Shown: one piece after another, positions 2,046-29,162 of the stretch | How positions within the stretch are numbered: position 1 is the first letter of the stretch | Layout of the letters: each line of letters opens with the position of its first letter | From: a bacterium GBS-1 | GTDB lineage: Bacteria; Synergistota; GBS-1 | Assembly: GCA_001443005.1 (NCBI GenBank) | Contig: LEKQ01000001.1 | Span: 594,542-658,541 of the forward strand | Length of the DNA stretch: 64,000 nucleotides | Direction: 5' to 3' | The notes under the pieces: generated by a model | The model's input: the letters and a program-made list of their open reading frames with translations, nothing else | Databases searched by the model: none | Told to the model about the DNA's origin: nothing | Made by a program: the position numbers and the translations under genes

Positions 2046-3329
2046 TCAGGGCTCCAAGACCGGAATGGTAATCAAGGCATTGGGTACAACCCAAACTTTA
2101 GCATCCTTGCCGAGCTCAAAGAACGCTCGCTCCAGCGCCTCTTCAACAGTAGGCTCGTACTCTAGAAATAGCTCCCTTAAGATAGGCTCTGGAACAGCTG
2201 TCCCAACCATAAAGATCTTAGCCCAGTTTAAGGCCTTAGCCAGAACGAAGGCCTTGTGCTCCCCCGGTTCAAATCCCTCGCGATAAGCCCTCTCTAAAGC
2301 TTCCACAGGTGACCTTACGCTTTTCATCCAGTTATAGTACCCCTCATGCCCTATACCATCCTCACACGCCGCAGGGATTATTATTATCCCCCCCTTTCTG
2401 ACCAAAGGACGAGGTGCAAATATCAGGTTATTAACCGCCCTGGTCGCCTGATATAGGTCCCTGTCCTTAGGATATCTGGGTATCGCTATGATAATATCCC
2501 CCTGCTGACTAGCTTTAACCTCATAAATCTCTTTCGCAAACCTCACGCCCGCATCGTGAGCTTTCACCGGATCACCAGCGAACACCCCAAGAAGGCGCTT
2601 ATCGTCATCGAGCACCACGTTAACTATGAAGTCAAGGCCAAGAAAGCCAGCCGCTTCCTCAAGAAAACGTCTAAAGAGGTTATCCTCGATCACACCCAAT
2701 CTGGTCTTAGGATGATCCAGCATGGCGATATTGTGCGTAGCAGAAATCGTGCGAACGCTTGCAACACCAACTGCAACGCTTTTAACCCCACCGCTGTACC
2801 CCGCAAAGAGGTGAGGTTCAATAACACCTGTCGCGATCCTTAAATCAGCCTCTGCTACGCTTTTATTTATCTCCACAGGTATGCCCTGAGATAGGGTGTT
2901 CCCCAAAAACTTAAGCCCCTCAGGGTTAAAGGCATTATGGTTCTCAACCTTGACTCTCCTTACCACCTCTTCACTATACATCTCCTTGAACTCCTCAATA
3001 GAATTGGGCCTGTGAGTACCAGTAGCAACAACTACACTGATATTCTCATCGGGTATCCCAGCTTCGTTAAGCTCCTTCAACAAAAGGGGAATGACTACCT
3101 CCTCACAAGCATATCTGGTTATATCGGTAGCTATGATGACCACCCTCTGCCCAGGCTTGGCTAAATCTCTTAGGGCTTTGCTCCCGATGGGATTTCTTAA
3201 GGCATCCTCAAAGGCAGAAACCACATCCTTAACCGGTGGGTACCTCTTCGGGTCAAGAACCCCCAAAAAATTCCTCTCAGGGATATTAAGCCTAAGAACA
3301 CTCCCCCTTAGGGGAATCTCGACTATCAA
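2046..3329 (-). CDS. LarA-like nickel-pincer (NPN) dependent 2-hydroxyacid racemase/epimerase homologue (DUF2088 family)
   Basis: 427 aa, the same size as lactate racemase LarA. The blocks [26 protein letters not shown] (the Lys corresponds to the NPN-tethering Lys of LarA) and SATHN are present where I remember the LarA catalytic His/Lys residues. Confidence 0.8.
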
Positions 3330-3358
3330 ATTAGATCAACCTGCCTTTCAGAGTACAA

Positions 3359-4417
3359 TCACATCCCCACAAGCTTTTTTGCCTCCTCTAAGGCCCTTAA
3401 GGCTCCTTCACCTAATGGTACGCCCTCCTTAAGCCTCTTGCACATGGTCCGATAGCTTCTCTCCCCCGGCAGAAGGATCTCATCCACGCCCTTAGCTCTC
3501 TTAGATCCCTTTATCATCTTTATGTATCCATCCACCTTTTCCTTGAACTCGTCAACCGGCATGAAGCTTTCGACTTTAATAGCCACCATAAAATTACCGA
3601 CGCCCATCGGCTTAGTAAAGTCCAAGAACATGGATTTTATATCTTTACCGTAAGAGGAACCAGTTAAGAGGCCACTTATTATGTCTATCACAATTGACAT
3701 CCCATATCCCTTGGCTCCCCCTAAGGGCAAAAGGGCTCCTTCTAGAGCCTTCTCCGGATCATCCGTGTGGTTTCCTTCATTATCCACAGCCCAACCGAAG
3801 GGGATTTTTTCACCCTTTCTTAAGCTCTCCTCTATCTTCCCTCTGGAAACAACGCTCGTTGACATATCCAAAACGATCGGTATCTCCCTACCTGCTGGTA
3901 TAGCAACTGCAAAGGGGTTCGTCCCTAGTACAGGCTCACAACCACCATGGGGAGCCATTAAAGCAGCTGTGTTAGTTAGAACGATGCCTATCATGTTTTC
4001 TCTCAGGGGCATCATCGCATAGTGACCCGCAATACCGATGTGATTCGTATTTCTAACGCCAGCGATAGCAACATCATTCTCCTTAGCCTTTTCTATACAC
4101 ATGGACATGGCCAGCTTTCCCGCAACCTGGCCAAGGCCATTATCTGCATCGATCAAGATAACGTTTCTTGATTCCCTTATAACCTTTATATTGGGTTTTG
4201 GATTTATAATCCCAAGCCTTATCCTCTTTACATAGGTGGGAAACCTAACTACACCGTGCGATTCTATTCCTCTTAAATCCGCTGCGACTATAGCCTCAGC
4301 TGTGTCAAGCGCATCCTGCTCTGGCACGCTCAAGCGCATCAGTACAGAGGAAAGGATCCCAATTAAATCCTCGTAAGGAACCAAAACCAAGGGAGCGAAA
4401 CCCTCCTTTAGGTTCAC
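3359..4417 (-). CDS. Ldh_2-family (malate/L-lactate/sulfolactate dehydrogenase type 2) oxidoreductase
   Basis: 352 aa with ADLRGIESHGVVRFPTYVKRI and NTNHIGIAGHYA blocks typical of the Ldh_2 family. That family includes ComC (R)-sulfolactate dehydrogenase, AllD and DlgD. Its start overlaps the upstream stop by 4 nt. Confidence 0.8.
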   Translation of the reverse strand: MNLKEGFAPLVLVPYEDLIGILSSVLMRLSVPEQDALDTAEAIVAADLRGIESHGVVRFPTYVKRIRLGIINPKPNIKVIRESRNVILIDADNGLGQVAGKLAMSMCIEKAKENDVAIAGVRNTNHIGIAGHYAMMPLRENMIGIVLTNTAALMAPHGGCEPVLGTNPFAVAIPAGREIPIVLDMSTSVVSRGKIEESLRKGEKIPFGWAVDNEGNHTDDPEKALEGALLPLGGAKGYGMSIVIDIISGLLTGSSYGKDIKSMFLDFTKPMGVGNFMVAIKVESFMPVDEFKEKVDGYIKMIKGSKRAKGVDEILLPGERSYRTMCKRLKEGVPLGEGALRALEEAKKLVGM

Positions 4418-5571
4418 ATCGTCGGACCTATTCTGGTTATCGCGAACTCACCATGACCAAGCTGCTCTGACTTAGTCATCTTTCCATTTATCACAGAAAG
4501 CATTTCCTTTATGATTCTGCGCCCAACCTCTTCAACCGTTTCGATCCCCAGTATTATAGTTCCTGCATTGATATCTATGTTATCGGACATCCTCTCCCAA
4601 GTCTTGGGATTACCAGTAATCTTTATAACCGGAGCAATGGGGCAACCAACGGGTGTTCCCCTTCCCGTGGAAAAGAGAACCAATTGAGCTCCACCTGCCA
4701 CCATGCCGCTCACCGACTGAACATCATGCCCTGGCGTATCCATTATCCACAGCCCTTTGCCCTTAGGCTGCTCCGCATATTCAACCACGCCTTGAATTGG
4801 AGACCTCCCAGCCTTAAGGATGCAACCAAGGGATTTTTCCTCTATCGTCGTTATACCACCTTCAATGTTGCCTCTCGTCGGCTGAGTCCCTCTTAAATCG
4901 ACGCCCATCTTCAAAGCGTCCTCTTCAGCTCTCTTTACGATCTCGTATATACGCTTAGCTACATCTTCGTTAACCGCTCGCTTGGCCAATATGTGCTCCG
5001 CCCCTATAAACTCGGGGGTCTCCGATAATATCGACGTTCCACCCGAGCTAACCACGAAGTCCGAAGCAACTCCCATGGCAGGGTTCGCCGCTATCCCAGA
5101 GGTGGCATCCGAACCACCGCACTCAAGAGCAATCACGATATGGGATAGATCTATGACCTCCCTCACCATCCCAGACAGATCCGAAAGCATGCTCTCAGCT
5201 ATGGCTATCCCCTTATCTATAGCCCTTAAGGTTCCACCTTCTTCCTGAATCACCAGGACCTCGACCTTCTTCCCCGACTCCGATATCCTCTCAGCCAACA
5301 TATAGGGATCGAGCTTCTCGCATCCGAGCCCAACCACCAGAACCGAAGCCACGTTGGGATTCTTACCAACCCCAACAAGGGTCCTCAGGGTTTGCTCATA
5401 GTCAACGCCAAGCTGTCCACATCCCTCATTATGAGTTATAGACACGCTTCCAGGAACACTCTTCGATATGGCTAAGACCACCTCATTGCTACAGACAACG
5501 CTCGAAAGTACAAGAAGGTGGTTTCTAATCCCAACTGAACCATCGGGCCTTATATAACCCCATAGTTTCAT
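4414..5571 (-). CDS. UxaA-family lyase/dehydratase, large (C-terminal-domain) subunit
   Basis: 385 aa. The THNEGCGQ block and overall layout match the C-terminal part of altronate/galactarate dehydratase. The same layout is found in SuyB of sulfolactate sulfo-lyase. It overlaps the small-subunit gene by 4 nt. Confidence 0.78.
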   Translation of the reverse strand: MKLWGYIRPDGSVGIRNHLLVLSSVVCSNEVVLAISKSVPGSVSITHNEGCGQLGVDYEQTLRTLVGVGKNPNVASVLVVGLGCEKLDPYMLAERISESGKKVEVLVIQEEGGTLRAIDKGIAIAESMLSDLSGMVREVIDLSHIVIALECGGSDATSGIAANPAMGVASDFVVSSGGTSILSETPEFIGAEHILAKRAVNEDVAKRIYEIVKRAEEDALKMGVDLRGTQPTRGNIEGGITTIEEKSLGCILKAGRSPIQGVVEYAEQPKGKGLWIMDTPGHDVQSVSGMVAGGAQLVLFSTGRGTPVGCPIAPVIKITGNPKTWERMSDNIDINAGTIILGIETVEEVGRRIIKEMLSVINGKMTKSEQLGHGEFAITRIGPTM

Positions 5572-5876
5572 CTCCCACCACCCTCTCCCTTAAGCAAGTC
5601 GCCTCTTCCCCTATTACTCACAACGTTATGAACATGCACCCAATCCCCAACCTCGATATCTCGCGTAGCCCTACCTATAACCTCACCGTACTTTATGACA
5701 TCGCCATCCTTTGGAATCCTCCTAACGGCAAACTTATGGCCAAAGGGTATGTCCGCGATCACCCTTACCTCCCTAGACTGGTTAGAGATTCTCACTAACG
5801 CTATCTCACCAGCTTGAATGTCTTCAAGAGCTGTAGCCACGTTATCTGCCCCATCAAGTAAAAGAGCCCTTTTCAT
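5568..5876 (-). CDS. UxaA-family small subunit (SAF / N-terminal domain)
   Basis: 102 aa. The DNVATALEDIQAGE...GHKFAVRRIPKGD.IKYGE pattern is typical of the SAF domain that forms the N-terminus of UxaA/GarD, or the separate SuyA subunit. Confidence 0.75.
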   Translation of the reverse strand: MKRALLLDGADNVATALEDIQAGEIALVRISNQSREVRVIADIPFGHKFAVRRIPKDGDVIKYGEVIGRATRDIEVGDWVHVHNVVSNRGRGDLLKGEGGGR

Positions 5877-5891
5877 AAATCAATCACCTTC

Positions 5892-7775
5892 CTATAAAAG
5901 CCAGTCTAACCCTAGCTCGATAAGCTTCCAAGGTTGGGGAACGCCCTCTTCATCCCAACCAGACATAAGGTAATAAATCCTCTTGGCCTCCTCGAACTCC
6001 TCCCTAGTAACGAATCTACCCTCATGGATACCCCCTCGGAGAGGCATGTACATCTTTTCTGCCAATCTATCCTCCTTCGAATCCACTCCACTTCTAACGT
6101 TAAACACCCTCATCATGTTCAGTCTTCTTTCCCCAACCTTCATGAGCTCCCATAGGCTCACTTCCCAACCGGTCACCGCGCTAACGGCTTCGACCACCTC
6201 ACTGTAGTTTAAACCCCTTGTAGGAGCCATGCAAAACATGCATATATCGAGGGAGTTCAACATGCTATAAGCTATCATAGTGTAATAGGCGAACCTAACT
6301 TTTCTACCATCAAGATCGAACCAAGGTAATCTCTCATTGATACCCAAGATAGCTATTCTTTCAAGGTTAACGTCTGGAGCGTCAGGACCTATGCTTGGAT
6401 CATGTTCACTCGCCATGTGATCCGCTCCTATAGGACAAACAGAATAGACCAAAGCAAGGGACCTTTTAACCCTCGGCTCATGAGCGGGATACTCAACCCC
6501 TTTGCATTCAACGGCATACCTCTCCGCGTTTCTCCCTATAGCTTGAGCAGCCCTCCTCGACCCTTCAGCCAGAAGTCTCCCTATACCCTCTTTCTTAACT
6601 ATCTTCTCAATAAGGGGTATTACCACATCCTTGTTACCAAACCTCAACTCAAGCCCATCGGTCTCTTCCTCAGTTAATATTCCGTTCTCATAGCAATCCA
6701 TTGCAAAAGCTATAGTTCCTCCCAGGGATATAGTGTCTATGGTGTACTTATTGCAGAGCTCTATAGCCTTAGAGACGATATAGGGGTCATCCACCCCTAT
6801 GTAGGAACCTAAAGCAGCCATAGATTCATACTCCAGGCTGGTGTACTCTTGATCTATCTCAAATGGTTCTCTCGCTCCAACCAACCTCTTACATCTTACA
6901 GGACAAGCATAACACCCGGTCTTTTTCACATCCATTATGGTCTCTATGAAGTCACCTGCAATCTTATCCACACCATCAAATACCCCGCTTCTCCAGTTAA
7001 AGGTGGGTAGCTGCCCACCTGTGCTGAAGAGCTTGGTGGTTATGGTTGTCCCCCACTGGTGCAATCTAAGCTGACCTGGGTAGCTCTTAAACCTGGAAGC
7101 AAAATCCTTGGCTATCTTTACCAACTTACCTTCATCCTTAAACTGGGGTTTTCTCGTCCCCTTAACCACAATAGCCTTCAGCTTTTTAGAACCCATAACT
7201 GCTCCAAGTCCGCATCTACCATGCATATCATGAATATCACAAGCTATGCTTGCAAACCTAACGAGGTTCTCCCCACCTGGGCCTATTCCAAGAATCCTCA
7301 AGCCCCTTTCTCCTAACTCTTTCTCAACCTCTCTAAGAACATCTGCGTTGTGCTTCCCCCAAAGATGCGAAGCATCTTTGATCTCCACATTTCCATCCTT
7401 AACCCAAAGATAAACGGGTTTTGAAGCCCTTCCTTTAACCACTATCGCGTCCAATCCCGCAGACTTTAAGGCCACACCCCAAAATCCACCGGCCTCGCTA
7501 TCAGCTATACCACCGGTCAACGGAGAGACTGAAACAGCCGAATGCCTTGCGAACCCCGGTAAGGGAGCACCCGTCACCACGCTGGGAGCGAAAACTATCA
7601 CGTTCTCAGGAGAATAGGCATCCGTTCCAGGTTTAACGTACTTCAATACATAATAACTTCCAAGACATCCCCCACCTATATATTTCCTGAAAAAGGCCTC
7701 TCCCGGACTCTCATATTCAACCGCCATATTAGAGAGATCCACATGGGCTATCCTATCCCAAAAGCCATATCCCAC
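5892..7775 (-). CDS. aor: tungsten-type aldehyde:ferredoxin oxidoreductase (AOR family)
   Basis: 627 aa. The N-terminus GYGFWDRIAHVDLS...KYIGGGCLGSYY resembles the AOR N-terminal domain, and GCYACPVRCKR is the [4Fe-4S] Cys motif. The start is a GTG 6 nt behind AAAGGGGTGA. Confidence 0.9.
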   Translation of the reverse strand: MGYGFWDRIAHVDLSNMAVEYESPGEAFFRKYIGGGCLGSYYVLKYVKPGTDAYSPENVIVFAPSVVTGAPLPGFARHSAVSVSPLTGGIADSEAGGFWGVALKSAGLDAIVVKGRASKPVYLWVKDGNVEIKDASHLWGKHNADVLREVEKELGERGLRILGIGPGGENLVRFASIACDIHDMHGRCGLGAVMGSKKLKAIVVKGTRKPQFKDEGKLVKIAKDFASRFKSYPGQLRLHQWGTTITTKLFSTGGQLPTFNWRSGVFDGVDKIAGDFIETIMDVKKTGCYACPVRCKRLVGAREPFEIDQEYTSLEYESMAALGSYIGVDDPYIVSKAIELCNKYTIDTISLGGTIAFAMDCYENGILTEEETDGLELRFGNKDVVIPLIEKIVKKEGIGRLLAEGSRRAAQAIGRNAERYAVECKGVEYPAHEPRVKRSLALVYSVCPIGADHMASEHDPSIGPDAPDVNLERIAILGINERLPWFDLDGRKVRFAYYTMIAYSMLNSLDICMFCMAPTRGLNYSEVVEAVSAVTGWEVSLWELMKVGERRLNMMRVFNVRSGVDSKEDRLAEKMYMPLRGGIHEGRFVTREEFEEAKRIYYLMSGWDEEGVPQPWKLIELGLDWLL

Positions 7776-7810
7776 AATTTATCACCCCTTTTAATGGCTT
7801 TAATATCAAA

Positions 7811-8812
7811 CTACTGAGGCAACCTTCTAATATCCCATATTTCCGGGTTAGCGATATTATCGGGCCTCTCTCCCCTTAATACAGATATGACGTTTTTACA
7901 AACCATTTTCGCCATATTAGAGAGCGTTTCTTCAGTATGGGCTGCCATATGAGGCGTAGCAACAACATTATCTAAAGTTAAAATGGGCTCATCAACGGAT
8001 GGGGGCTCTGGATCGAAAACATCCATACCAGCACCTGCTATGACCCCATCCCTAAGAGCCCTATAAAGTGCCCTTTGATCTATCACCGAACCCCTTGCAG
8101 TGTTAACAATTATAGCGTTTCTCTTCATCATGGAGAGCTCCCTTTCGCCTATGAACTTCTCGTTCTCCTTAGTAGCAGGTATGTGTATCGTTATAAAATC
8201 CGCATTTCTAAGAAGATACTCCAGATCTCCAACAAGCTCAGTATCCTCTAACCCCTCTTGCCTAAGAAGCTCTTCGTTAATATATGGATCATAGCCTATA
8301 ACTTTCATAGAAAAACCATACTTGCATATCCTGGCAACCTTTCTTCCGATGTTGCCTAAACCTATAACTCCAAGGGTCTTTCCTGAAAGCTCAAAGCTCT
8401 TAACCTGAAGCCTATAGTTGTAGTTTCCATAAACCCTAAGCTGAACACCCGCATCCCATATGTGCTTCGCAACCGCCATCATCAGACATACGGTATGCTC
8501 AGCAACCGCATTAGCATTCGAGCCCGGTGCATAAACCACTGGAATGCGGTAGGCATTGGCTGCTTCTAAATCCACGTTATCAACCAAAGCCCCATGTTTA
8601 CCTATGACAACGCATCTTTTAGCGGCTTCGATTATACTTCTACCTATGTAGGGATGAACCCTCACGATTATGCCATCATAATCCATAACCTTTTTCAAGA
8701 GATATTCCTCGTCAAGGCTTTCCGCAACATCAACCTTTATCTCCGCTTCTTCCAACATCTTAACCCCATCTGGGTGAATTTCCTGCATCAAAAGGACCCT
8801 TCTTTCAGCCAT
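7811..8812 (-). CDS. D-isomer-specific 2-hydroxyacid dehydrogenase (glycerate, hydroxypyruvate or phosphoglycerate dehydrogenase-like)
   Basis: NAD fold GVIGLGNIGRKVA, NTARGSVID, and catalytic His in TPHMAAHTEE. I place the start at the ATG at 8812 behind GAGGTGG; the ORF-track start at 8827 is a GTG inside that Shine-Dalgarno sequence. Confidence 0.85.
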   Translation of the reverse strand: MAERRVLLMQEIHPDGVKMLEEAEIKVDVAESLDEEYLLKKVMDYDGIIVRVHPYIGRSIIEAAKRCVVIGKHGALVDNVDLEAANAYRIPVVYAPGSNANAVAEHTVCLMMAVAKHIWDAGVQLRVYGNYNYRLQVKSFELSGKTLGVIGLGNIGRKVARICKYGFSMKVIGYDPYINEELLRQEGLEDTELVGDLEYLLRNADFITIHIPATKENEKFIGERELSMMKRNAIIVNTARGSVIDQRALYRALRDGVIAGAGMDVFDPEPPSVDEPILTLDNVVATPHMAAHTEETLSNMAKMVCKNVISVLRGERPDNIANPEIWDIRRLPQ

Positions 8813-8839
8813 GATACCCCACCTCACGTAAAGGCAGTC

Positions 8840-9703
8840 TTAAAGTACCTTCCTTAAGATCTTCGGAATCTCCGATAGCTTAAAGGCTATCTTAGCTCCA
8901 GCATCCTCTAAAACCCTTAGCTTGCTATCCGCACTTCCCGTTTCCCCTTGTATAATGGCCCCAGCATGCCCCATTCTCTTACCCGGCGGAGCCAGTCTAC
9001 CCGCAATGAAGGCTATGACTGGTTTCCTCATGCGCCTTATAACAGCGCTCGCATCCTCCTCACGGCTTCCTCCTATCTCTCCCACGATAACTACAGCCTC
9101 AGTATCGTTATCCCTATCAAACATTTCCAAGATATCAGCTATGTCTACCCCGGTAACTGGATCAGCTCCAATACCCACAACGCTGCTTTCACCGAAACCC
9201 TCATCGTTAAGATATCCAGAGACCTCATAAGAAAGCGTCCCGCTCCTTGAGATGACCCCTACCTTCCCCGGTTTAAACATATTGCCAGGCATTATCCCAA
9301 GCTTACCTACACCGGGAGAGATTACGCCAGGGGTTGTGGGACCAAGCATTACGACGCCCCTCTTCCTCGCAACCTCCCTCATCTCCATGGCATCAGCTAT
9401 GGGAACATGCTCGGGAATAACTACAACAAGCTTTATACCAGCATCTATAGCTTCAAACACAGCATCCTTCGCAGCAAAGGGTGGAGCAAATATAACCGTA
9501 GCATTAACGCCAAACCTCTCTACCGTCTCCTTAACATCATCAAACACTGGAACACCATATACCGTCTCTCCCTTTCTCCCAGGCGTTACTCCTGCCAAGA
9601 TCTTCGTACCATACTCCAACATCCACCTCGTCTGTATGCTTCCCACCCTACCAGTTATACCCTGGACGATAGCCCTGGTCTCATAAGTTAAAAGTATTGC
9701 CAT
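8840..9703 (-). CDS. sucD: succinate--CoA ligase (ADP-forming) alpha subunit-like
   Basis: 287 aa, collinear with SucD. Blocks QGITGRVG, VISRSGTLSYE and the phosphohistidine loop RMGHAGAII are present. Confidence 0.85.
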   Translation of the reverse strand: MAILLTYETRAIVQGITGRVGSIQTRWMLEYGTKILAGVTPGRKGETVYGVPVFDDVKETVERFGVNATVIFAPPFAAKDAVFEAIDAGIKLVVVIPEHVPIADAMEMREVARKRGVVMLGPTTPGVISPGVGKLGIMPGNMFKPGKVGVISRSGTLSYEVSGYLNDEGFGESSVVGIGADPVTGVDIADILEMFDRDNDTEAVVIVGEIGGSREEDASAVIRRMRKPVIAFIAGRLAPPGKRMGHAGAIIQGETGSADSKLRVLEDAGAKIAFKLSEIPKILRKVL

Positions 9704-9708
9704 AACCT

Positions 9709-10860
9709 TTATCCCCTCTCCTTCTGAGATAAAATCTCCTTAAGCAGATCGATCGCTTTCTCCGTATGGAAAGTTTTTATCAAGTGCACTCCAGCGCTAC
9801 TTAATATCTCCCAGGCCTCTTCCTGTTGATTCCCAACCGCCTTAACCACGATGGGGACATCTTTCGCAAAGCTCTCCCTAGCCTGTTTAACTCCATTAGC
9901 TGCTTCTATAAGGGAGTTCACCCCACCATAAAGATTAATGAGAATTGCCTTTATATTGCCTCTCCTTAAAACGAGCCTTATTGAATCGTTTATGAGCTTA
10001 GCTGTTATTCCACCGCCAGTCTCAAGAAAGTTGGCCGGCCTTAAGCCCTCATCAGCCATCAAATCTACAGTATACATACCCAAGCCCGCACCGCTCGATA
10101 TGAGCCCTATATCTCCATCAAGCACAACATAGGACACACCTATCTCTTTCGCTTCTCTTTCCATATAATCCTCCACGTCGACCTTTTCCAGCTTAGAGAA
10201 ATACTCCTGCCTAAATAAAGCATTATCATCTACTTCTACCTTAGCATCAGCCGCAACGATTCTTCCATCCTTTAAAAGGCATAAAGGATTTATTTCCAAG
10301 ATCGTTAAATCATAGCGAACGAAGGCATCGAACATAGAAGCAGCTATGTGAGAAAGCTTTACCAAAAGCTCCCTCTCAAAGCCCTTTCCCCTCAAAGCTG
10401 ACCTTATCTCATACTCCCTTAAAGCTTCGCTCGGATATTTATCTATTCTCACGAGCCTCTCGGGAAAGAGCTTAACTATCTCCTCTATATCCATGCCACC
10501 GGCATCGCAGAACATGAAGGTACGCTTACCAGATCGCGTATCTATGGTTATCCCCATATATATCTCCCTAGCTATGTCTAAAGCCTCCTCTACAAGGAGC
10601 TTCTTAACTTTAAAACCCCTTATCTCCTTACCAAAAAGCTCAGAAGCAACCTCTTGAGCGGTTTTAGGATCATCCGCAGGCTTAATACCACCCGCCTTAC
10701 CCCTACCACCTATGGGGACCTGTGCCTTAAGCACAACCTTCTTCCCTATCCTCTCGAAAGCGCCGGAAGCTTCCGACGGAGCGCTAATTACTACACCCTC
10801 GGGAACATCTATGCCGATCAGCTTTAAAAAATCCTTCCCCTGATATTCTAAAAGCCTCAT
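9709..10860 (-). CDS. sucC: succinate--CoA ligase (ADP-forming) beta subunit-like (ATP-grasp)
   Basis: Blocks MRLLEYQGKDFL, GGRGKAGGIK, EINPL and NLYGGV are collinear with SucC. I prefer the ATG at 10860 to the ORF-track start at 10893, which overlaps the upstream gene. Confidence 0.85.
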   Translation of the reverse strand: MRLLEYQGKDFLKLIGIDVPEGVVISAPSEASGAFERIGKKVVLKAQVPIGGRGKAGGIKPADDPKTAQEVASELFGKEIRGFKVKKLLVEEALDIAREIYMGITIDTRSGKRTFMFCDAGGMDIEEIVKLFPERLVRIDKYPSEALREYEIRSALRGKGFERELLVKLSHIAASMFDAFVRYDLTILEINPLCLLKDGRIVAADAKVEVDDNALFRQEYFSKLEKVDVEDYMEREAKEIGVSYVVLDGDIGLISSGAGLGMYTVDLMADEGLRPANFLETGGGITAKLINDSIRLVLRRGNIKAILINLYGGVNSLIEAANGVKQARESFAKDVPIVVKAVGNQQEEAWEILSSAGVHLIKTFHTEKAIDLLKEILSQKERG

Positions 10861-10870
10861 CTCTCTTCCC

Positions 10871-11410
10871 TCACCCTTTCTTGAATATATCAAAGGCAGC
10901 CCTTAAGGCTTTTAAGTTTAAATCCCTAGTAGCAGGAGGTACCCTATTAAGCATGGCAGCCTCGAGCGATTCCCTTTTTACTATTCCTGTTAATGAGACC
11001 AAAACCCCCAAAGCCACTATGTTCGCAGATAAAGGCTTACCTGTCTCCCTTATGGATATCTCTGTTATAGGAAGCTCGTATATCTCAACGTCAGAGCGAG
11101 GTTTGACCTCCTTGATATAAAGTGTATCAATGATGATTAATCCTCCCTCTTTGACGCTCTCACCGTATTTATCCAGCGCATCTTGAGTCATAGCAAGTAA
11201 TATATCTGGTCTTTCGATCTCTGGGTAGTTTATCTCCTCATCGCTTATGATGATCTCGGACCTACTTGCACCACCTCTTGCCTCGGGACCATAGGACTGA
11301 TTATGCGTAGCGTTCTTTCCCTCATAAATCACCGCAGCCTCCGCAAGGATAATCCCTGCGAGAACCAGACCTTGACCACCGTAACCGCTTAACACTATCT
11401 CCTTCCTCAT
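10871..11410 (-). CDS. 2-oxoacid:ferredoxin oxidoreductase gamma subunit
   Basis: 179 aa with the SGYGGQGLVLAG block typical of OFOR gamma subunits. It directly abuts the beta-subunit gene (0-nt gap). Confidence 0.88.
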   Translation of the reverse strand: MRKEIVLSGYGGQGLVLAGIILAEAAVIYEGKNATHNQSYGPEARGGASRSEIIISDEEINYPEIERPDILLAMTQDALDKYGESVKEGGLIIIDTLYIKEVKPRSDVEIYELPITEISIRETGKPLSANIVALGVLVSLTGIVKRESLEAAMLNRVPPATRDLNLKALRAAFDIFKKG

Positions 11411-12235
11411 TTAACCTTCCCCACCTTCAGCTAATTTTCGCCTTAACTCCTCATAAAGCTCCGTATACTCTCTCTTCTCCTTATTAACGAAGAGCTCGCC
11501 TATCAAAAACTTATCCTTCATCTCCTCGAGACTATACCTTTGAGCCTGTTGAACTAAAACAGCATGTTCCTTCTGCCACATCAGCATCTCATAAGGAGTT
11601 CTCATCCTATTTCTTCTCCCATAACCTACAGGACATTGAGAGACAACCTCAATGAAGCTAAAGCCCTTATGAGCGATGGCCTTAGCTATAAGATCAGCCG
11701 TTAACTGAATATGATAAACGGTGCTTCTTGCGATGAAGGTCGCTCCTGCCGCCTCAACAAGCTTGCATATGTCGAAGGATGGTTCAATGTTGCCGTAGGG
11801 AGCTGTTGTAGCATAGGTACCTTGAGGGCTTAAAGGGGAATACTGCCCACCTGTCATACCATATATACTGTTGTTTATAAGTATTGTAGTTATGTCTATG
11901 TTCCTTCTAGCAGCGTGGATCAGATGATTTCCCCCTATCGCCGCACCATCGCCGTCTCCCGTAATAACTATCACCTTCATATCGGGACGCATCAACTTAA
12001 AGCCTGTAGCGAAAGCTAAAGTCCTACCGTGAGTCGTTTGAATGGTGTTAAAGTCCACTATCACGTTGGTCCTTGCCGAACAGCCGATCCCGGTGAAAAG
12101 GACGATTTCATCCTTGCTCAACCCAAGCTTATCAACCGCCATGATCAAAGCCCTCACCACTGAACCGTTACCACAGCCCGGACACCATATATGAGGAAGC
12201 TTGCTTAACCTTAGATACTTCTTTATATCAAGCAT
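11411..12235 (-). CDS. 2-oxoacid:ferredoxin oxidoreductase beta (TPP-binding) subunit
   Basis: Blocks WCPGCGNG and ITGDGDGAAIGGNH (TPP/Mg site). The start ATG at 12235 lies within an ATGCTTGA overlap with the alpha stop, behind AAAGAGGTG. The ORF-track start at 12262 is probably too long. Confidence 0.88.
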   Translation of the reverse strand: MLDIKKYLRLSKLPHIWCPGCGNGSVVRALIMAVDKLGLSKDEIVLFTGIGCSARTNVIVDFNTIQTTHGRTLAFATGFKLMRPDMKVIVITGDGDGAAIGGNHLIHAARRNIDITTILINNSIYGMTGGQYSPLSPQGTYATTAPYGNIEPSFDICKLVEAAGATFIARSTVYHIQLTADLIAKAIAHKGFSFIEVVSQCPVGYGRRNRMRTPYEMLMWQKEHAVLVQQAQRYSLEEMKDKFLIGELFVNKEKREYTELYEELRRKLAEGGEG

Positions 12236-13373
12236 GGCTAAACACCTCTTTAATCGCATCAACTATCTCCCAAGGAGATATCATCTTGCCATCAACCCTA
12301 TTAATTCTAACAGCTTTCCTACAAATGCATCTTTCCACCTCTCCTACAAGCTGCCCCATGTTCATCTCAGGCACGACAACAACCTTAGCTCTTTTCGCAT
12401 ACCCCTCTACAACTTCGCCAGGGAAAGGCCAAAGGGTTTGTAACTGCAAAAGCCCAGCTCTTATCCCGCCCTCCCTCAGCATGTTAACTGCATCCTTGGC
12501 AGACCTCGCTGTACACCCATAGGCTACGATAAGCACGTCAGAATCCTCAACCCTATAGGTCTTATAATAAGTTATCTCCTTCCTATAAAACTCTATCTTC
12601 TTGTGAAGTCTCCTTATAAGCTCATTCGCCACCTTATGGTTATATGTTGCTGGGAAGCCCTCCTCATCATGTACATTACTAGTTACGTGATATCTGTACC
12701 CCTTACCGCGATAGGCGAAATCAGGAACACCGTCAGGCCCAGCGGCAAAAGGCTTATATTGCTCAGGCGGCAAGTTAGTAACTCTCCTATTAACTATCCT
12801 TATCCTGCTCGGATCTGGCAAAGTTACCTTCTCCCTTACGTGACCAACCACCGCATCGGAAAGAAGGATCACCGGATTTCTAATGAGCTCAGATATATTA
12901 AAGGCCTCTATAGTTAACTCAAAGGCCTCTTGAACCGTAGCAGGGCATAAGACAACTATAGGATGGTCTCCATGCGTTCCCCACCTCGCCTGCATGACAT
13001 CTCCCTGCGCAGGAAGGGTCGGTAAACCCGTGCTCGGCCCACCCCTTTGCACATCCACTATGACGCAAGGAATGTCAACTATTGTGGCATATCCCAAGTT
13101 CTCCTGCATTAAGGTAAATCCAGGACCACTCGTTGCAGTCATGGCCTTAAAACCAGCCATAGATGCTCCTATAACCGCAGCGATGCTAGCTATCTCATCC
13201 TCCATCTGAATGAATACCCCACCTACCTGAGGCATCCTAAGAGCCATCATCTCGGCTATCTCTGTAGCTGGAGTTATCGGATAACCCGCGAAGAACCTCA
13301 CTCCAGCTAAGATGGCTGCCTCAGCTATAGCCTCATTACCTTGCATGAATCGCACATCCTCCTTAAGGCTCAT
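12228..13373 (-). CDS. 2-oxoacid:ferredoxin oxidoreductase alpha subunit
   Basis: 381 aa with GNEAIAEAAILAGVRFFAGYPITPATEI and the general KorA/PorA layout. It overlaps the delta gene by 4 nt. Confidence 0.88.
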   Translation of the reverse strand: MSLKEDVRFMQGNEAIAEAAILAGVRFFAGYPITPATEIAEMMALRMPQVGGVFIQMEDEIASIAAVIGASMAGFKAMTATSGPGFTLMQENLGYATIVDIPCVIVDVQRGGPSTGLPTLPAQGDVMQARWGTHGDHPIVVLCPATVQEAFELTIEAFNISELIRNPVILLSDAVVGHVREKVTLPDPSRIRIVNRRVTNLPPEQYKPFAAGPDGVPDFAYRGKGYRYHVTSNVHDEEGFPATYNHKVANELIRRLHKKIEFYRKEITYYKTYRVEDSDVLIVAYGCTARSAKDAVNMLREGGIRAGLLQLQTLWPFPGEVVEGYAKRAKVVVVPEMNMGQLVGEVERCICRKAVRINRVDGKMISPWEIVDAIKEVFSHA

Positions 13374-13597
13374 TCCTCTTCCCCCTCCCGCACCTCAACA
13401 GCATAATCAGGACACCTGAGCTCACAGCTTCTACAACCTACACACATCTCCTCGCGCATAACCCTAACCTTACCATCGCTTGTAAACTCAAAAACCTTCT
13501 TAGGGCAAAACTCTACACATATACCACAAGACTTACACCACTTAGTATTCAGAACAACCTTAAACCTCTTAGTCAAGGCAATCACCCCTTCTTTCAA
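13370..13597 (-). CDS. 2-oxoacid:ferredoxin oxidoreductase delta subunit (2x[4Fe-4S] ferredoxin)
   Basis: 75 aa with two CxxCxxCxxxCP motifs, CKSCGICVEFCP and CVGCRSCELRCP. Confidence 0.85.
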   Translation of the reverse strand: MKEGVIALTKRFKVVLNTKWCKSCGICVEFCPKKVFEFTSDGKVRVMREEMCVGCRSCELRCPDYAVEVREGEEE

Positions 13598-13602
13598 AGC
13601 GC

Positions 13603-13803
13603 TTAGCCGCCCGACATGATATATGTAACTACTATCTCGTCACCATCCCTAACTATCCTCGAGCTATACTCCCTCCTGGGCAAGACATCCCTATTCAAGA
13701 ACACAGTCATATAAGAGATATCATAACCAAGCTTCTCTAAAAGCTCCCCCACGGTCATCTCACCTTCCAAATTAACTTCCCTATTATTCACCTTAACAAG
13801 CAT
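13603..13803 (-). CDS. ThiS/MoaD-family ubiquitin-like sulfur-carrier protein ending in Gly-Gly
   Basis: MLVKVNNREVNLEG...GDEIVVTYIMSGG* has the size, N-terminal pattern and C-terminal GG typical of ThiS/MoaD. The start is ambiguous: TTG at 13821, ATG at 13812 or ATG at 13803. I prefer 13803. It ends 5 nt upstream of the OFOR delta gene. Confidence 0.65.
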   Translation of the reverse strand: MLVKVNNREVNLEGEMTVGELLEKLGYDISYMTVFLNRDVLPRREYSSRIVRDGDEIVVTYIMSGG

Positions 13804-13825
13804 CTCCTCCATTTCCTCCAAATAA

Positions 13826-13863
13826 ATTATACTCAGTATACTGTCTACTTCCTAAATCATCAA
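13826..13863 (-). promoter_or_regulatory. candidate internal sigma-70 promoter upstream of the ThiS-like/OFOR genes
   Basis: Read on the minus strand: TTGATG (13863-13858), a 17-nt spacer, then TATACT (13840-13835), followed by a second TATAAT (13831-13826) and GGAGG. It lies in the 75-nt gap after dehydratase no. 2. Confidence 0.35.
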
Positions 13864-13896: not shown

Positions 13897-15552
13897 TCAC
13901 TCCAGGGATCTTCTAACCGCTCCCTTTGACGCGCTCTCAACGAAAAGCCTATAATATCTCAGGTAGCTGTTTTCAGGTATAAAGGAGCGATTGACCTCCT
14001 GTACCTCTCCTTTTCTCCTTTTATATTCTTCCTCTGATATCAATAGGTCTACCCTCTTCCTCCCGAGGTCTATCCTTATAACATCACCATCCCTAACTAT
14101 GGAGAGCGGTCCTCCTGCCGCCGCCTCAGGGGAAACATAAGCTATAGAGATGCCGTAAGAAGCCCCGCTAAGCCTGCCATCGGTTATGAGTGCAACGTTC
14201 TTATATCTATTTATTATCTCAACACACCTATGAAGCTCCCTCATGCCCGGACCTCCACAAGGCCCCTCGTATCTTATGATGATAACCTCCCCATCCTTAA
14301 GGTCATTGCTTGATGCATACTCCATAAACTCATCCTCCGAGTTAAATACCCTAGCTACCCCTTCAAAGGGATCCTTCAAAACGTCCACCAGCGCAGACAC
14401 CTTAAGCAGGGCTCCATCAGGAGCAAGGTTTCCTCTCAAGACTTTTATAGCTCCACCCTTAGCTATGGGGTCGGAAACCGATCTTATGATTGACTTCAAA
14501 GGCCTGAATCCCTCACTCTTCCCAATGATATCCCTCCAGGTATCGTTAAGGACCGTCTTTCTATCAAGGTTAAGATAATCCTTTAGTTCTCTTATCAATG
14601 CAACCACTCCGCCAGAAAAATACAGATCTATAACGGTATTCTCGTCGCTATTGGGAGTAACTTGAGCAATCAGGGGAACACTCTCGCTTATCCTCTCAAA
14701 ATCCTCCATGCTTATCTCTATCCTTAGCTCATGAGCTATGGCAGGAATGTGAAGAACAGCGTTTAGAGAACCACCTATAGCCATAACTACAGCTATTGCA
14801 TCCTCAAAAGCTTCCCTCGTCATTATCGCCGAAGGTTTCAAGCCCATCTCTATTAAGCGAACAGCTTGCTCTCCGGTTAATCTAGCTAAGTTATATCTCT
14901 GACTTGTTCCCGCTGGAGTTAAAGCTGACCCTGGCAATCCCACACCCAAAACCTCAGCTACTATACACATGGTATTTGCCGTTCCCAAAAATGGGCAAAC
15001 ACCTGGACCAGGATAATACCTCTCCGTGATGTCAAGCAGCTCATCCTCGGAGACCTTACCCTCAAGAAAGCTCCTTCTCGCCATCTTGGACTCCTTAGGC
15101 TTGATATAGTTGCACATCGGTCCTGCTCCCAACCAAATAGAGGGAAGGTCTATCCTAGCCATAGCCATAAGCATACCAGGGACGATCTTGTCGCAGGAGG
15201 AGAGAAAAACCAAACCATCGAATATATCGTGTCCCTTCACCATAGATTCTATCGAATCAGCGATCAACTCCCTGCTTGGGAGGCTATATTTCATGCCCTT
15301 ATGCCCCTGAGCTATACCATCGCATATAGCTATCGTGTTGAACTCGATTGGAACTCCACCAGCCTTGTAAACCCCTTCTTTTACCTTCTCGGCCAGGTCT
15401 CTTAAAGGGACATGCCCAGGGACTATTTCGTTCCAAGAGTTGACTATACCTACTATGGGCTTGTTAAGATCCGCTCGGGAAAAACCACAAGAAATTAGAT
15501 GCCCCTTTATAAGCTGTCTAACGTAGTTCGGAAAAGCACTCAATCGGTTCAT
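13897..15552 (-). CDS. IlvD/Edd-family Fe-S dehydratase no. 2 (sugar-acid dehydratase candidate)
   Basis: 551 aa with [44 protein letters not shown] and TDGRLSGAS blocks. Confidence 0.88.
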   Translation of the reverse strand: MNRLSAFPNYVRQLIKGHLISCGFSRADLNKPIVGIVNSWNEIVPGHVPLRDLAEKVKEGVYKAGGVPIEFNTIAICDGIAQGHKGMKYSLPSRELIADSIESMVKGHDIFDGLVFLSSCDKIVPGMLMAMARIDLPSIWLGAGPMCNYIKPKESKMARRSFLEGKVSEDELLDITERYYPGPGVCPFLGTANTMCIVAEVLGVGLPGSALTPAGTSQRYNLARLTGEQAVRLIEMGLKPSAIMTREAFEDAIAVVMAIGGSLNAVLHIPAIAHELRIEISMEDFERISESVPLIAQVTPNSDENTVIDLYFSGGVVALIRELKDYLNLDRKTVLNDTWRDIIGKSEGFRPLKSIIRSVSDPIAKGGAIKVLRGNLAPDGALLKVSALVDVLKDPFEGVARVFNSEDEFMEYASSNDLKDGEVIIIRYEGPCGGPGMRELHRCVEIINRYKNVALITDGRLSGASYGISIAYVSPEAAAGGPLSIVRDGDVIRIDLGRKRVDLLISEEEYKRRKGEVQEVNRSFIPENSYLRYYRLFVESASKGAVRRSLE

Positions 15553-21954: not shown

Positions 21955-23109
21955 TTACATGGCAGATCTGCATATCTGGATCAGATCTTCCAAGGTAGGA
22001 GTTCTCGGATTAATGGGTATCCCAACGTTACTCATCGCCTCACGACATATATCTTCAATGGCATCCTCTTTGACGCCTACCTCTCTTAGCCCTGCCGGTA
22101 TACCCACATCTCTACACAAAGCCTTTACCGCCTCAACCGCCCTACGTGCAGCCTGAAGCTCCGTAAGACCGGAAACGCTCTCTCCCAACGCTTCAGCTAT
22201 CTTAGCAAACTTAGAAAGGTTGCCAATGAGATTAAACTCCATACCATAGGGTAATAGGATAGCGTTTATCACACCATGAGGCACGTCGAAGTACCCACCC
22301 ATAACAGCTGTGATAGCGTGAATAACGCCCAAGCGCGTATTTGCGAAAGCCAAGGCTGCCATCGTGCTTCCTAAGAGCATGTTATAGCGAGCTTCAATAT
22401 TATCCCCCTTAGCATAGGCAGCCCTCAGATACTTTCCAATAAGATAGATAGCGTGATAGGCAAGCGACTCCGATATAGGCTCAGTTACAACGTTCGTGAA
22501 GGACTCTATAGCGTGAGTTAGAGCATCTAAACCAGTAGCAGCGGTCACGCTTGGCGGCATACTCAAGGTTAGAAGGGGGTCGCAAACCGCAATGTGAGGA
22601 GCGATCTTAGGATTACCTATGCCCATCTTAACTTTCTTCTTGGTATCCTTTATCACCGTCACCCAAGTTATCTCGCTACCTGTGCCAGCCGTAGTAGGAA
22701 CGGCAATGAGAGGAAGTATCCTGTTCTTCGGAGGGTTCTTCCAAAAGTAGGCTATCTCCCCCTCGTTAGTTAAAAGTAGACCGATCGCCTTAGCGGTGTC
22801 TATCGAGCTTCCTCCCCCAATCGCCAATAGGAGATCACACCCAAACTCCCGAGCAACTTTAACTCCCTCCTCGACTATCTCAACCGTCGGATTAGGCTCA
22901 ACTTTAGAGAAAACCTCAGTTCTAAAGCCAGCAATATCCAACTTGGCCTTTATGCCATTTACGATGTTCGTGCACATCAATCCCGGATCCGTAACTATTA
23001 AGACGCTCTTTCCGCCCAGTTCGTTAACCCTGTCTACTATTTTTTCGGCCTCTCCTATCCCAAAATACAACTTAGTCGGAATCTGCCAAACGAAGGGCTT
23101 AACAAACAT
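21955..23109 (-). CDS. iron-containing (group III) alcohol dehydrogenase
   Basis: 384 aa with GGGSSIDTAKAIG, the metal-binding His region LDALTHAIES and VPHGVINA. Confidence 0.88.
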   Translation of the reverse strand: MFVKPFVWQIPTKLYFGIGEAEKIVDRVNELGGKSVLIVTDPGLMCTNIVNGIKAKLDIAGFRTEVFSKVEPNPTVEIVEEGVKVAREFGCDLLLAIGGGSSIDTAKAIGLLLTNEGEIAYFWKNPPKNRILPLIAVPTTAGTGSEITWVTVIKDTKKKVKMGIGNPKIAPHIAVCDPLLTLSMPPSVTAATGLDALTHAIESFTNVVTEPISESLAYHAIYLIGKYLRAAYAKGDNIEARYNMLLGSTMAALAFANTRLGVIHAITAVMGGYFDVPHGVINAILLPYGMEFNLIGNLSKFAKIAEALGESVSGLTELQAARRAVEAVKALCRDVGIPAGLREVGVKEDAIEDICREAMSNVGIPINPRTPTLEDLIQICRSAM

Positions 23110-23238: not shown

Positions 23239-23299
23239 GCCATGTTCGTATACCCAGTATGCTTGGATTAATGGTAATACCTCAACTATTTCGCATATA

Positions 23300-26523: not shown

Positions 26524-26997
26524 TTAAAAGCACCTTTTTCTGAGATTAAACCTTCTTAAAATGGGCAGAAACATGCCTCCAACGAGAGCTAACGCCCCAA
26601 GAGCGCCGGGCCTGGAGGAGATTTCACAACCGCCGCACCACCAGTCAAAGTCAACCCTTATGCTACGAGGCCCCCACCATGTAGAATGACCGTATTCATC
26701 CTCAACCTTAACGCATACATCGTACCACCCCTCGTACCACACCCTATACCATAGAGTGTCGCTCCACTCCACCTCAACGCCATTCACATACCATGTATAG
26801 TAAATGTAATCACCATCAGGATCATAGGCTTCAACGCGCCCCTTTATGATCGCATATTCATCACACCAATCGTATTCGTAATAATCCACATCCAACCAAA
26901 CGTTCGTTATTATAGGAGGCGAGTTCTGCCCCAAAGCATATCCAGATATACATAAGAGCAAGACAAGGGAAACAAGCGATATCTTAAGCCCCTTCAA
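26524..26997 (-). CDS. small secreted Trp/Tyr-rich PKD/Ig-like-domain protein with a C-terminal hydrophobic anchor or sorting-signal-like tail
   Basis: 157 aa. It has a signal peptide (MKGLKISLVSLVLLLCISGYALG/Q) and an NSPPIITNV...AYDPDGDYIYYTWYVNG pattern like PKD/cadherin-like Ig domains. It contains 11 Trp and 14 Tyr. The tail is CGGCEISSRPGALGALALVGGMFLPILRRFNLRKRCF. The TTG start lies in a TTGA overlap with the upstream stop, 9 nt behind GGGAGG. Confidence 0.6.
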   Translation of the reverse strand: MKGLKISLVSLVLLLCISGYALGQNSPPIITNVWLDVDYYEYDWCDEYAIIKGRVEAYDPDGDYIYYTWYVNGVEVEWSDTLWYRVWYEGWYDVCVKVEDEYGHSTWWGPRSIRVDFDWWCGGCEISSRPGALGALALVGGMFLPILRRFNLRKRCF

Positions 26998-28232
26998 ATG
27001 AAACTTCCTCCCTTAGCGCGTTCCATCAAATCAAGGAGAACTTCAACCACCTTTTGAGCAAACTCAGGATCATTTATGTTGTTATCGAGCTCGTAAACTG
27101 GTATCCCAGGTCTAAGATTAGCCTTTATCGAATCGAAGCAAGCCCTATCAGCCTCAGGATCCCAGAAGGCTTGACCAGGACTGTCAAGCATGGAAACACC
27201 CTTTAGCGGTATAAGCACGGCCACCGGCCCCTTGCTTTCGTTCGCCGCCCTAGCTATCCACTCCCCTATGGCTTTGTTTTCTTCAACGTTCGTCCTAACC
27301 AAGGTGACATTAGGATTCCACTCGTATATCTTTCTGCCCCTATACTTCTCCGGAACCGTATCTTTCGCCCAGAAATTGATCATATCGACACAACCCGGAA
27401 CTAAAACGGCAGGGATACCTCTTCTTGCAGCAGCAAAGAGCCTATCCTTCCCCGCCGATAGAACCCCTCCACCTATCTCATCAGCTAACTCCGTAGTCGT
27501 TATATCAGCCACAGCTGAAACCAAGCCCTGATCAATGAGCATCTCCATGGTTCTCCCACCGGTCCCAGTAGCGTGAAACACCAGTATCTCAAAGCGATCG
27601 CCCAAAAGCTCTTTAACCTTCTCGACGCACGGTGTCGTGTTCCCAAACATGCTTATAACTATAACTGGCTTCTCAGGCTCCTTAAGCATCTCCTCATAGG
27701 CACCATGCTCAAGCATCCCCGCGAGCGCCCCCACGGCGTTCTTATAAATCGCCCTGCTAATCCTATTTAAGCCAGCCACATCAACTATTGAGGGAAACAT
27801 CACTATATCCTTAATCCCAACATATCGAGATACATCTCCACCAGCAACCGTAGACACCATCACCTTAGGAATACCTATGGGCAAAGCTTGCATGGCCGTT
27901 GTGGCTATTATGGTCCCAGCGCTTCCTCCCATACCAAGTATGCCATGAAGATTCCCTTCATCATATAACCTCCTAACTACCTCCTTAAGCCCCTTGGTCA
28001 TCGTATCCATCGCTAAGCTCTTATCCTTTTTCGCCTGGAGCTCCTCTATGCTCACTCCCCCCGCCTTTGCCACCTCTGCCCTCGTTATATCTGGTTCGAA
28101 GAAGGGCTTCCCCATCACACCAAAATCAACCACAATAACCTCAAAACCAGAGCTCTTGAGCAGATCCCTAACGTAGGCAAAATCCTGCCCTTTGGTATCT
28201 AAGGCACCGACTAAAACAACCTTCTTAGTCAT
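26994..28232 (-). CDS. UPF0261 / Tm-1-like ATP-binding-domain protein
   Basis: 412 aa. The N-terminus KKVVLVGALDTKGQDFAYVRD and general layout match my recollection of the UPF0261 family, which is homologous to the N-terminal half of tomato Tm-1. Confidence 0.7.
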   Translation of the reverse strand: MTKKVVLVGALDTKGQDFAYVRDLLKSSGFEVIVVDFGVMGKPFFEPDITRAEVAKAGGVSIEELQAKKDKSLAMDTMTKGLKEVVRRLYDEGNLHGILGMGGSAGTIIATTAMQALPIGIPKVMVSTVAGGDVSRYVGIKDIVMFPSIVDVAGLNRISRAIYKNAVGALAGMLEHGAYEEMLKEPEKPVIVISMFGNTTPCVEKVKELLGDRFEILVFHATGTGGRTMEMLIDQGLVSAVADITTTELADEIGGGVLSAGKDRLFAAARRGIPAVLVPGCVDMINFWAKDTVPEKYRGRKIYEWNPNVTLVRTNVEENKAIGEWIARAANESKGPVAVLIPLKGVSMLDSPGQAFWDPEADRACFDSIKANLRPGIPVYELDNNINDPEFAQKVVEVLLDLMERAKGGSFI

Positions 28233-28247
28233 ACTATCCTCCCTCCC

Positions 28248-29087: not shown

Positions 29088-29162
29088 TAGCAACACCTCC
29101 CTTAAAAAAATCTTTTCTGACTATATTATAAAGCTTAGACAATCTTTATATCAACTTAAAAG

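Follow-up and report, generated by a model that had tools for sequence, protein, structure and literature searches.

A ThiS-type sulfur-carrier gene at the head of a catabolic 2-oxoacid:ferredoxin oxidoreductase operon in a Synergistota bacterium

We examined a 64,000-nucleotide stretch of DNA from the bacterium GBS-1 (Synergistota; assembly GCA_001443005.1, contig LEKQ01000001.1, positions 594,542 to 658,541 of the forward strand), referred to below as the window. Its minus strand carries a small gene whose 66-residue product ends in Gly-Gly. Judged by profile, database and predicted-fold comparisons, this gene, here called thiS, is a genuine ThiS-family sulfur-carrier gene, its product being ThiS-type in every test. 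It precedes korDABC, the genes of a 2-oxoacid:ferredoxin oxidoreductase (OFOR), an enzyme that depends on thiamine diphosphate (TPP). We favor, with confidence that goes about halfway, the reading that ThiS functions as a thiocarboxylate carrier, is activated in trans and is expressed together with a TPP-dependent enzyme; its sulfur would go most probably to the thiazole of TPP.

Results

The Gly-Gly protein belongs to the ThiS family

The gene was delimited as follows.

13603..13803, minus strand: thiS-like gene, 66 aa, MLVKVNN...IMSGG plus stop, called from the open reading frame (ORF), hidden Markov models (HMMs), a structure model, orthologues and the ratio of nonsynonymous to synonymous differences per site (pN/pS)

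ThiS proteins work through a C-terminal thiocarboxylate that is formed after adenylation by ThiF or MoeB. A preliminary description of the window, made from the letters alone, had recognized a ThiS/MoaD-like beta-grasp protein with a terminal Gly-Gly and had proposed an HMM search; HMMs, matches in the Protein Data Bank (PDB) and a predicted model all support this assignment. The ThiS family models place the protein above their cut-offs: Pfam PF02597 matched with an E value of 1.2e-10 and 42.2 bits (cut-off 22.5), and the NCBIfam equivalog for "sulfur carrier protein ThiS", TIGR01683, with 53.7 bits (cut-off 37.45). The only NCBIfam models that matched at E <= 0.01 were thiS and PRK06437; no MoaD model did so. 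When PDB sequences were searched, either with the single sequence or with a profile of five orthologues, ThiS chains ranked first (E. coli 1F0Z/1ZUD, Geobacter 2K5P/3CWI and Thermus 2CU3), with SAMP2 following weakly. An AlphaFold (AF2) model built from 110 homologues predicted a beta-grasp topology with a pLDDT of 93. Compared with the PDB by Foldseek, this model placed Geobacter and E. coli ThiS on top (TM 0.87-0.89), followed by a second tier of TtuB (TM ~0.66) and SAMP1/2 (TM 0.59-0.64). MoaD structures were found neither in the top 50 Foldseek matches nor among the PDB sequence matches. The C-terminus reads Y(I/L)M(S/A)GG across the subfamily described below (YIMSGG in the window), as against IPPLSGG in a MoaD-type protein of the relative L098.

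The stop codon occupies 13603-13605 and follows ...VVTYIMSGG. Three in-frame starts, TTG 13821 (72 aa), ATG 13812 (69 aa) and ATG 13803 (66 aa), are all present, in agreement with the earlier account of a 66-72-aa ORF ending in SGG. Gene callers picked ATG 13803 on several independent metagenome contigs, and the resulting 66-aa protein fits the ThiS models and aligns end to end with all orthologues (MxVKVNN...). The TTG start is unlikely because the transcription start predicted from the conserved -10 element (see below) coincides with it or lies downstream of it, and the orthologues have 66 residues. The protein contains no cysteine. Its Gly-Gly end is free, and JAB-type processing is therefore not needed. 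Comparison with the orthologue L006 gave pN 0.29 and pS 0.70 per site, values that indicate purifying selection on the coding sequence; the length and the GG end are kept in seven sequence clusters. A chance or spurious ORF was rejected in view of the HMM scores, the purifying selection and the conserved orthologues.

Close relatives are few. In a HMMER search of 1.84 billion cluster representatives, a 58%-identical protein of 66 aa was the sole close relative, all others being at most 44% identical. A profile search of 5.8 billion proteins delineated seven 90%-identity clusters that form a tight subfamily, with scores of 118-137 bits as against 49 bits for the match that followed; all seven clusters end in (S/A)GG, the GG being invariant. 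A word-indexed protein search with the single sequence returned nothing but the window protein itself, and a scan of metagenome contigs with a two-sequence alignment returned the same organism only. Two subfamily members are already named "sulfur carrier protein ThiS [Synergistetes bacterium]" by NCBI (MCS7232830.1 and MBC7330857.1). That much was known; the protein is ordinary, and what is unusual is its genomic position. Two 42%-identical homologues lie in thiO-thiS-thiG-thiDE and thiS-thiG operons. Another at 42% identity, P0006, has two extra residues after the GG and belongs to a ThiS-ThiF-JAB-sulfite reductase-TusA-O-acetylhomoserine sulfhydrylase cluster. Since homologues at this identity serve differing pathways, similarity fixes the chemistry, that of a thiocarboxylate carrier, and not the acceptor.

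thiS is the first gene of a korDABC operon in one narrow clade

The slot between an IlvD/EDD-like dehydratase gene and korDABC-sucCD-2-hydroxyacid dehydrogenase-aldehyde:ferredoxin oxidoreductase (AOR) is filled by thiS in five of five members with visible context, namely the window and four other species. Compared with the window, these four show KorA identities of 77-79% and ThiS identities of 55-58%, and NCBI names relatives at this level of KorA identity as Synergistetes metagenome-assembled genomes (MAGs). A sixth species is inferred from a 15,962-bp Logan contig that carries both a subfamily ThiS and a 78%-identical KorA. The co-occurrence survey proposed by the preliminary description thus does tie thiS to the OFOR/AOR cluster in relatives, within one narrow clade. 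Beyond it the linkage disappears. In the relative L098 (KorA identity 73%), korD follows a non-coding stretch of 223 nt, with thiS missing there; L099 (70%) has no ThiS, and an orthologous AOR sits directly upstream of its korD; L100 (66%) has no ThiS either. Among the 80 more distant OFOR loci listed from a genome-contig scan with KorA (52-62% identity), none had a ThiS-like ORF within +/-10 kb at E <= 1e-3; 71 of these loci had at least 700 nt of upstream sequence and 79 had korD. The matches listed included no close relatives, and the scan serves as a negative survey only. Because ThiS is missing from L098-L100 and from these 80 loci, it is not a general OFOR accessory; on this comparative sequence evidence, the linkage is a clade-specific acquisition of the operon. 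Literature searches for a link between ThiS and OFOR genes gave no relevant result.

The genes that flank thiS in the window are listed below.

13897..15552, minus strand: IlvD/EDD-family sugar-acid dehydratase, directly upstream of thiS, with a 93-nt spacer containing the promoter between them
13370..13585, minus strand: korD, OFOR delta subunit, 2x[4Fe-4S]; GTG 13585 by gene calls, TTG 13597 in the longest ORF
12228..13373, minus strand: korA, OFOR alpha subunit; POR_N and PFOR_II domains, NF006412 at 563 bits (cut-off 411)
11411..12235, minus strand: korB, OFOR beta subunit with the TPP-binding domain; domain matches and a 274-aa gene call
10871..11410, minus strand: korC, OFOR gamma subunit; domain matches
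8840..10860, minus strand: sucC and sucD, ADP-forming succinyl-CoA synthetase beta and alpha subunits; TIGR01019 above cut-off
7811..8812, minus strand: D-2-hydroxyacid dehydrogenase family gene; domain matches and a gene call
5892..7727, minus strand: tungsten-type AOR; AFOR_N and AFOR_C domains, same gene string

The distance of 5 nt first reported between thiS and the OFOR delta gene holds only for the longest korD ORF (TTG 13597); the gene-called start, GTG 13585, leaves 17 nt. With either start thiS and korD are operonic. The gaps downstream of thiS measure 0-83 nt and no convincing terminator was found there. AOR is eight genes, about 6 kb, downstream of thiS, so that the original picture of a gene glued to OFOR and 6 kb from aor is borne out. 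After AOR follow, on the same strand and in this order, a split altronate/galactarate dehydratase (SAF + GD_AH), an Ldh_2-family dehydrogenase, a LarA-family racemase and a second IlvD/EDD dehydratase. Upstream, also on the same strand, lie the IlvD/EDD dehydratase, a DHDPS-family lyase, an FGGY kinase, a short-chain dehydrogenase (SDR), TctCBA, an iron-type alcohol dehydrogenase (Fe-ADH) and a second TctCBA.

From its gene content, this island is a candidate anaerobic route from sugar acids to an aldehyde and 2-oxoglutarate, and on to succinate, with ATP formation. Its putative parts would be the IlvD/EDD dehydratase, the DHDPS-family lyase/dehydratase (aldolase), AOR, the Kor-like oxidoreductase, whose substrate is probably 2-oxoglutarate, succinyl-CoA synthetase and the Tct transporters. 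The whole string (window 349-26337, minus strand) recurs over some 20-26 kb, with nearly every gene retained, in at least four related species, L095, L096 and L097 among them, in the order TctCBA, Fe-ADH, TctCBA, SDR, FGGY kinase, DHDPS-family, IlvD/EDD, thiS, korDABC, sucCD, 2-hydroxyacid dehydrogenase, AOR, SAF + GD_AH, Ldh_2, LarA-like, IlvD. Its appearance is that of an island for the anaerobic breakdown of sugar acids, with 2-oxoglutarate oxidation and substrate-level phosphorylation as the last steps. The recurrence of AOR-korDABC-sucCD-2-hydroxyacid dehydrogenase in L098 and L099 suggests that AOR, the 2-oxoglutarate:ferredoxin oxidoreductase (OGOR), succinyl-CoA synthetase and the 2-hydroxyacid dehydrogenase form a conserved functional core. 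In L099, named a Clostridia MAG by NCBI, this string spans 2293-10053. L098 encodes at 9193-9552 a 119-aa MoaD-type protein (...FIPPLSGG) directly upstream of an AOR (9573-11426) that is a more distant paralogue.

Several other features of the region were recorded. The best NCBIfam match of the LarA-family gene (2046-3329, minus strand) is a nickel-pincer (NPN)-dependent malate racemase, below cut-off; larB, larC and larE were not found in the 64-kb window. The NPN cofactor, a pyridinium bis-thiocarboxylate, contains thiocarboxylate groups, and given these a nearby sulfur carrier is worth a thought for the LarA-family gene. A 157-aa ORF (26524-26997, minus strand) with no Pfam or NCBIfam match lies between the downstream end of a UPF0261/PEP-hydrolase-like pair (26994-29096) and the Tct genes. 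GC skew is strongly negative throughout the window, with values per 4 kb of -0.07 to -0.30; almost every gene is on the minus strand, and the coding strands are purine-rich. RpoD, DnaG, GlyQS, RecO and Era are also encoded, and the DNA is bacterial. The window matches contigs of a 77 degC corn-stover enrichment in Great Boiling Spring sediment and of other samples; JGI 3300000085 differs by 6 mismatches in 20 kb.

A conserved promoter with a palindromic spacer precedes thiS

Two overlapping promoter-like elements lie in the spacer upstream of thiS.

13826..13848, minus strand: conserved promoter/operator block GTAGACAGTATACTGAGTATAAT, with the -10 element TATAAT at 13826-13831 and the spacer palindrome AGTATACT (TATAC-N3-GTATA)
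13835..13863, minus strand: promoter-like site TTGATG-17-TATACT, 9 of 12 matches, overlapping the conserved block; its -35 is not kept in relatives

When the spacers of the five species were aligned, GTATAyTnnGTATAAT was invariant. The TATAAT of the window and the 16 nt that precede it are conserved with respect to the four other species and, because of this conservation, we conclude from the alignment that a real sigma-70 promoter lies ahead of thiS, with TATAAT (13826-13831) as its predicted -10. The relatives have TTGAAT or TTGAGA 17 nt upstream (TTGAAT-17-TATAAT), and TGn precedes the -10 in four; the -35 that the window has at this spacing, TAGGAA, is a weak one. Against an expectation of 0, the window contains a single copy of the 23-mer GTAGAYAGTATACTNNGTATAAT.

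The promoter had originally been described as TTGATG-17-TATACT plus TATAAT. A promoter is present and both motifs exist; the conserved -10 is TATAAT, not TATACT. We rejected TTGATG-17-TATACT as the main promoter since its -35 is not conserved, and it may still act in the window species. Bare consensus matches of this kind are at chance level, with 3 sites found and 1.4 +/- 1.4 expected. The best sigma-70 match of the region, TTGACG-18-TATAAT (11 of 12; 13926-13955, plus strand), is antisense to the IlvD/EDD-like gene, within its 3' end, and is directed away from thiS; though the strongest of the scan, it is probably due to chance.

The conserved palindrome AGTATACT in the promoter spacer is likely an operator. 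The element (AGTATACTnnGTATA) is reminiscent of GntR-family operators. L098 and L100 carry GntR/FCD regulators; no GntR-type regulator gene was found in the window. A sequence that resembles this palindromic spacer, AGCATACTGGGTATA (23249-23263, minus strand), lies upstream of the Fe-ADH gene (21955-23109), just upstream of a promoter-like site TTGACG-17-TAAGAT. The two sequences may be a shared operator of one regulon.

Partner genes are not in the neighborhood

The Pfam scan covered the window ORFs of at least 100 aa, except where a gene included in the scan overlapped them on the other strand. ThiF/MoeB, ThiG, ThiH/ThiO, MoaE, TtuA, JAB and LarE were not among them, in line with the preliminary description, which had seen no ThiF/MoeB, ThiG/ThiH or MoaE partner in the window. 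Among the window ORFs of 40 aa and more, thiS was the only ThiS-like one. The approximately 7 kb that extend past the window start contain no thi or moa cofactor-synthesis genes. A cognate E1 and an acceptor would have to be encoded in another part of the genome. Beyond window position 1 (L093 14075-18944), this region encodes a 2-phosphosulfolactate phosphatase (ComB)-like protein, a PF04463 (2-thiouracil desulfurase family)/DUF1722 protein, a photolyase and a molybdopterin oxidoreductase; an SDF transporter is found there as well. In view of the molybdopterin oxidoreductase, the organism needs a pterin cofactor pathway, and hence a MoaD elsewhere.

Discussion

A carrier probably made together with a TPP-dependent enzyme

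How might such a carrier work at this position? By family precedent, an E1 of the ThiF/MoeB type, with its gene at another place in the genome, would adenylate the free C-terminal Gly-Gly, a cysteine-desulfurase or rhodanese persulfide would then convert it to a thiocarboxylate, and an acceptor enzyme would receive the sulfur; this acceptor would most probably be the thiazole synthase ThiG, acting in TPP synthesis. The gene was captured, in a narrow thermophilic Synergistota-like clade, as the promoter-proximal member of a catabolic unit running thiS-korDABC-sucCD-2-hydroxyacid dehydrogenase-AOR and onwards. The carrier would thereby be made together with the TPP-dependent OFOR and without thiamine-responsive riboswitch control. 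We favor TPP as the destination because the protein is ThiS-type in every test, because the adjacent enzyme is TPP-dependent and because MoaD genes beside AOR provide a precedent, both in L098 and in the literature, where the linkage of MoaD genes to AOR is described as mobile (Iyer, Burroughs & Aravind 2006, PMC1779556).

Several observations weigh against a destination in TPP. The genes thiF, thiG, thiH, thiO, thiC, thiD and thiE were all missing from the 64-kb window, from the ~7 kb past its start and, in three relatives, from the surrounding +/-10 kb. A TPP riboswitch was not found, the window having no Rfam match that reached the gathering threshold and the surroundings of thiS none at E <= 1; such control is typical of thiamine-pathway ThiS genes, though not obligatory. 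A housekeeping biosynthetic carrier under a substrate-type catabolic promoter would be odd unless it is a second copy. The sharp separation of the subfamily (118-137 versus 49 bits) fits a specialized paralogue. Finally, the acceptor is not fixed by sequence, because a 42%-identical homologue serves a ThiS-ThiF-JAB-sulfite reductase-O-acetylhomoserine sulfhydrylase pathway.

Alternative roles

ThiS could be a specialized paralogue serving another thio-compound, TtuB-type tRNA thiolation, NPN sulfur for the LarA homologue, or ubiquitin-like modification. Such a role would account for the distinct tight subfamily and for a catabolic operon lacking thi neighbors and a riboswitch; the second-tier structural and sequence matches to TtuB and SAMP, the 42%-identical homologue in a homocysteine/cysteine-type pathway and the LarA-family gene at 2046-3329 in the cluster are also in its favor. 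Three points oppose it: neither the window nor the flanks of relatives encode an E1, JAB, TtuA, LarE or any other acceptor; LarA is absent from the retrieved L096 cluster, which keeps thiS; and the TM score to TtuB is ~0.66 as against 0.87-0.89 to ThiS. We consider it unlikely. A narrower formulation, in which a dedicated non-thiamine paralogue tied to the OGOR/AOR module gives its sulfur to an operon enzyme without ThiG or MoaE (for the LarA NPN or the tungsten cofactor), or is attached to operon proteins in a ubiquitin-like manner, under a sugar-acid-responsive repressor acting at the palindrome, appears to us a little less probable still.

The protein could instead supply AOR, a use that the preliminary description had entertained. 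It would then be a functional stand-in for MoaD and provide sulfur for the molybdopterin/tungstopterin dithiolene of the AOR eight genes downstream. thiS and AOR are co-operonic in five of five species, and AOR-linked MoaD genes are documented and mobile (PMC1779556). Moreover, L098, which has no thiS before korD, has a MoaD-type gene directly upstream of AOR, and in L099 an orthologous AOR fills the slot upstream of korD. The tungstopterin proposal is weakened because the protein is ThiS-type and not MoaD-type: there is no MoaD model at E <= 0.01, no MoaD structure in the top 50 fold matches or the PDB sequence matches, and the C-terminus is not of the MoaD type, that of L098 being clearly different. 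Its length is 66 aa, as against ~80 or more. No moaE lies nearby, and thiS is not adjacent to AOR. We therefore regard this role as quite improbable. Very improbable, in our estimate, is a non-catalytic accessory or extra OFOR subunit, or a retained passenger without any link to the operon's chemistry. The tight coupling to korD and the position fixed across five species would suit either, but ThiS is missing at 80 of the 80 OFOR loci listed (79 with korD) as well as in L098-L100. Furthermore, the GG and the ThiS core residues are under purifying selection, pointing to activation chemistry and not to a structural role, and a protein without cysteines has no cluster-binding potential.

If ThiS does feed thiazole and TPP synthesis, it would be the ThiS counterpart of the AOR-linked MoaD arrangement, under catabolic rather than vitamin-responsive control. 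This could be relevant for thermophiles, thiamine being heat-labile. Should ThiS be a paralogue that serves a different acceptor, it would give inexpensive access to a new sulfur-transfer or ubiquitin-like pathway of bacteria. Under either reading, the conserved 20-kb cluster merits annotation as one unit.

Comparison with known systems

The known ThiS proteins of E. coli (1F0Z/1ZUD), Geobacter metallireducens (3CWI/2K5P) and Thermus (2CU3/2HTM) share with the window protein a length of ~66 aa, the beta-grasp and the free Gly-Gly, at 30-36% identity and TM 0.87-0.89. Unlike usual ThiS genes, the window gene has no thiF, thiG, thiH or thiO neighbors and no TPP riboswitch and heads a catabolic kor-suc-aor operon; its product also forms a subfamily of its own (118-137 bits within, 49 bits to the next relative). 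TtuB, the Thermus sulfur carrier for tRNA 2-thiouridine and a ubiquitin-like protein (5GHA/5ZTB), is likewise a small beta-grasp GG protein of a thermophilic bacterium and is activated by a shared E1 in trans, the point on which we liken ThiS to it. The resemblance is limited to a TM of only ~0.66 and 22-25% identity, and no TtuA lies near the window gene. HcyS/CysO-type carriers, represented by the P0006 context, are of the same fold family at 42% identity. In these systems a JAB peptidase trims the residues past the GG and the E1 adjoins, whereas the window ThiS ends at GG and has neither neighbor.

The closest parallel in genomic logic is provided by the AOR-linked MoaD genes (PMC1779556). 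These are MoaD-type, strictly adjacent to AOR and often accompanied by MoeB or MoaE, and the relative L098 shows a true MoaD-type arrangement for comparison. The window gene differs in being ThiS-type, in adjoining korD at 6 kb from AOR and in having no E1 or MoaE nearby. In both cases, a sulfur carrier of the superfamily is encoded among the genes for an enzyme that depends on a cofactor containing sulfur, and in both AOR is part of the same operon. By analogy, the logic of the thiS-korDABC unit parallels that of the AOR-linked MoaD genes, in that the sulfur carrier for a cofactor would travel with the enzyme that uses it.

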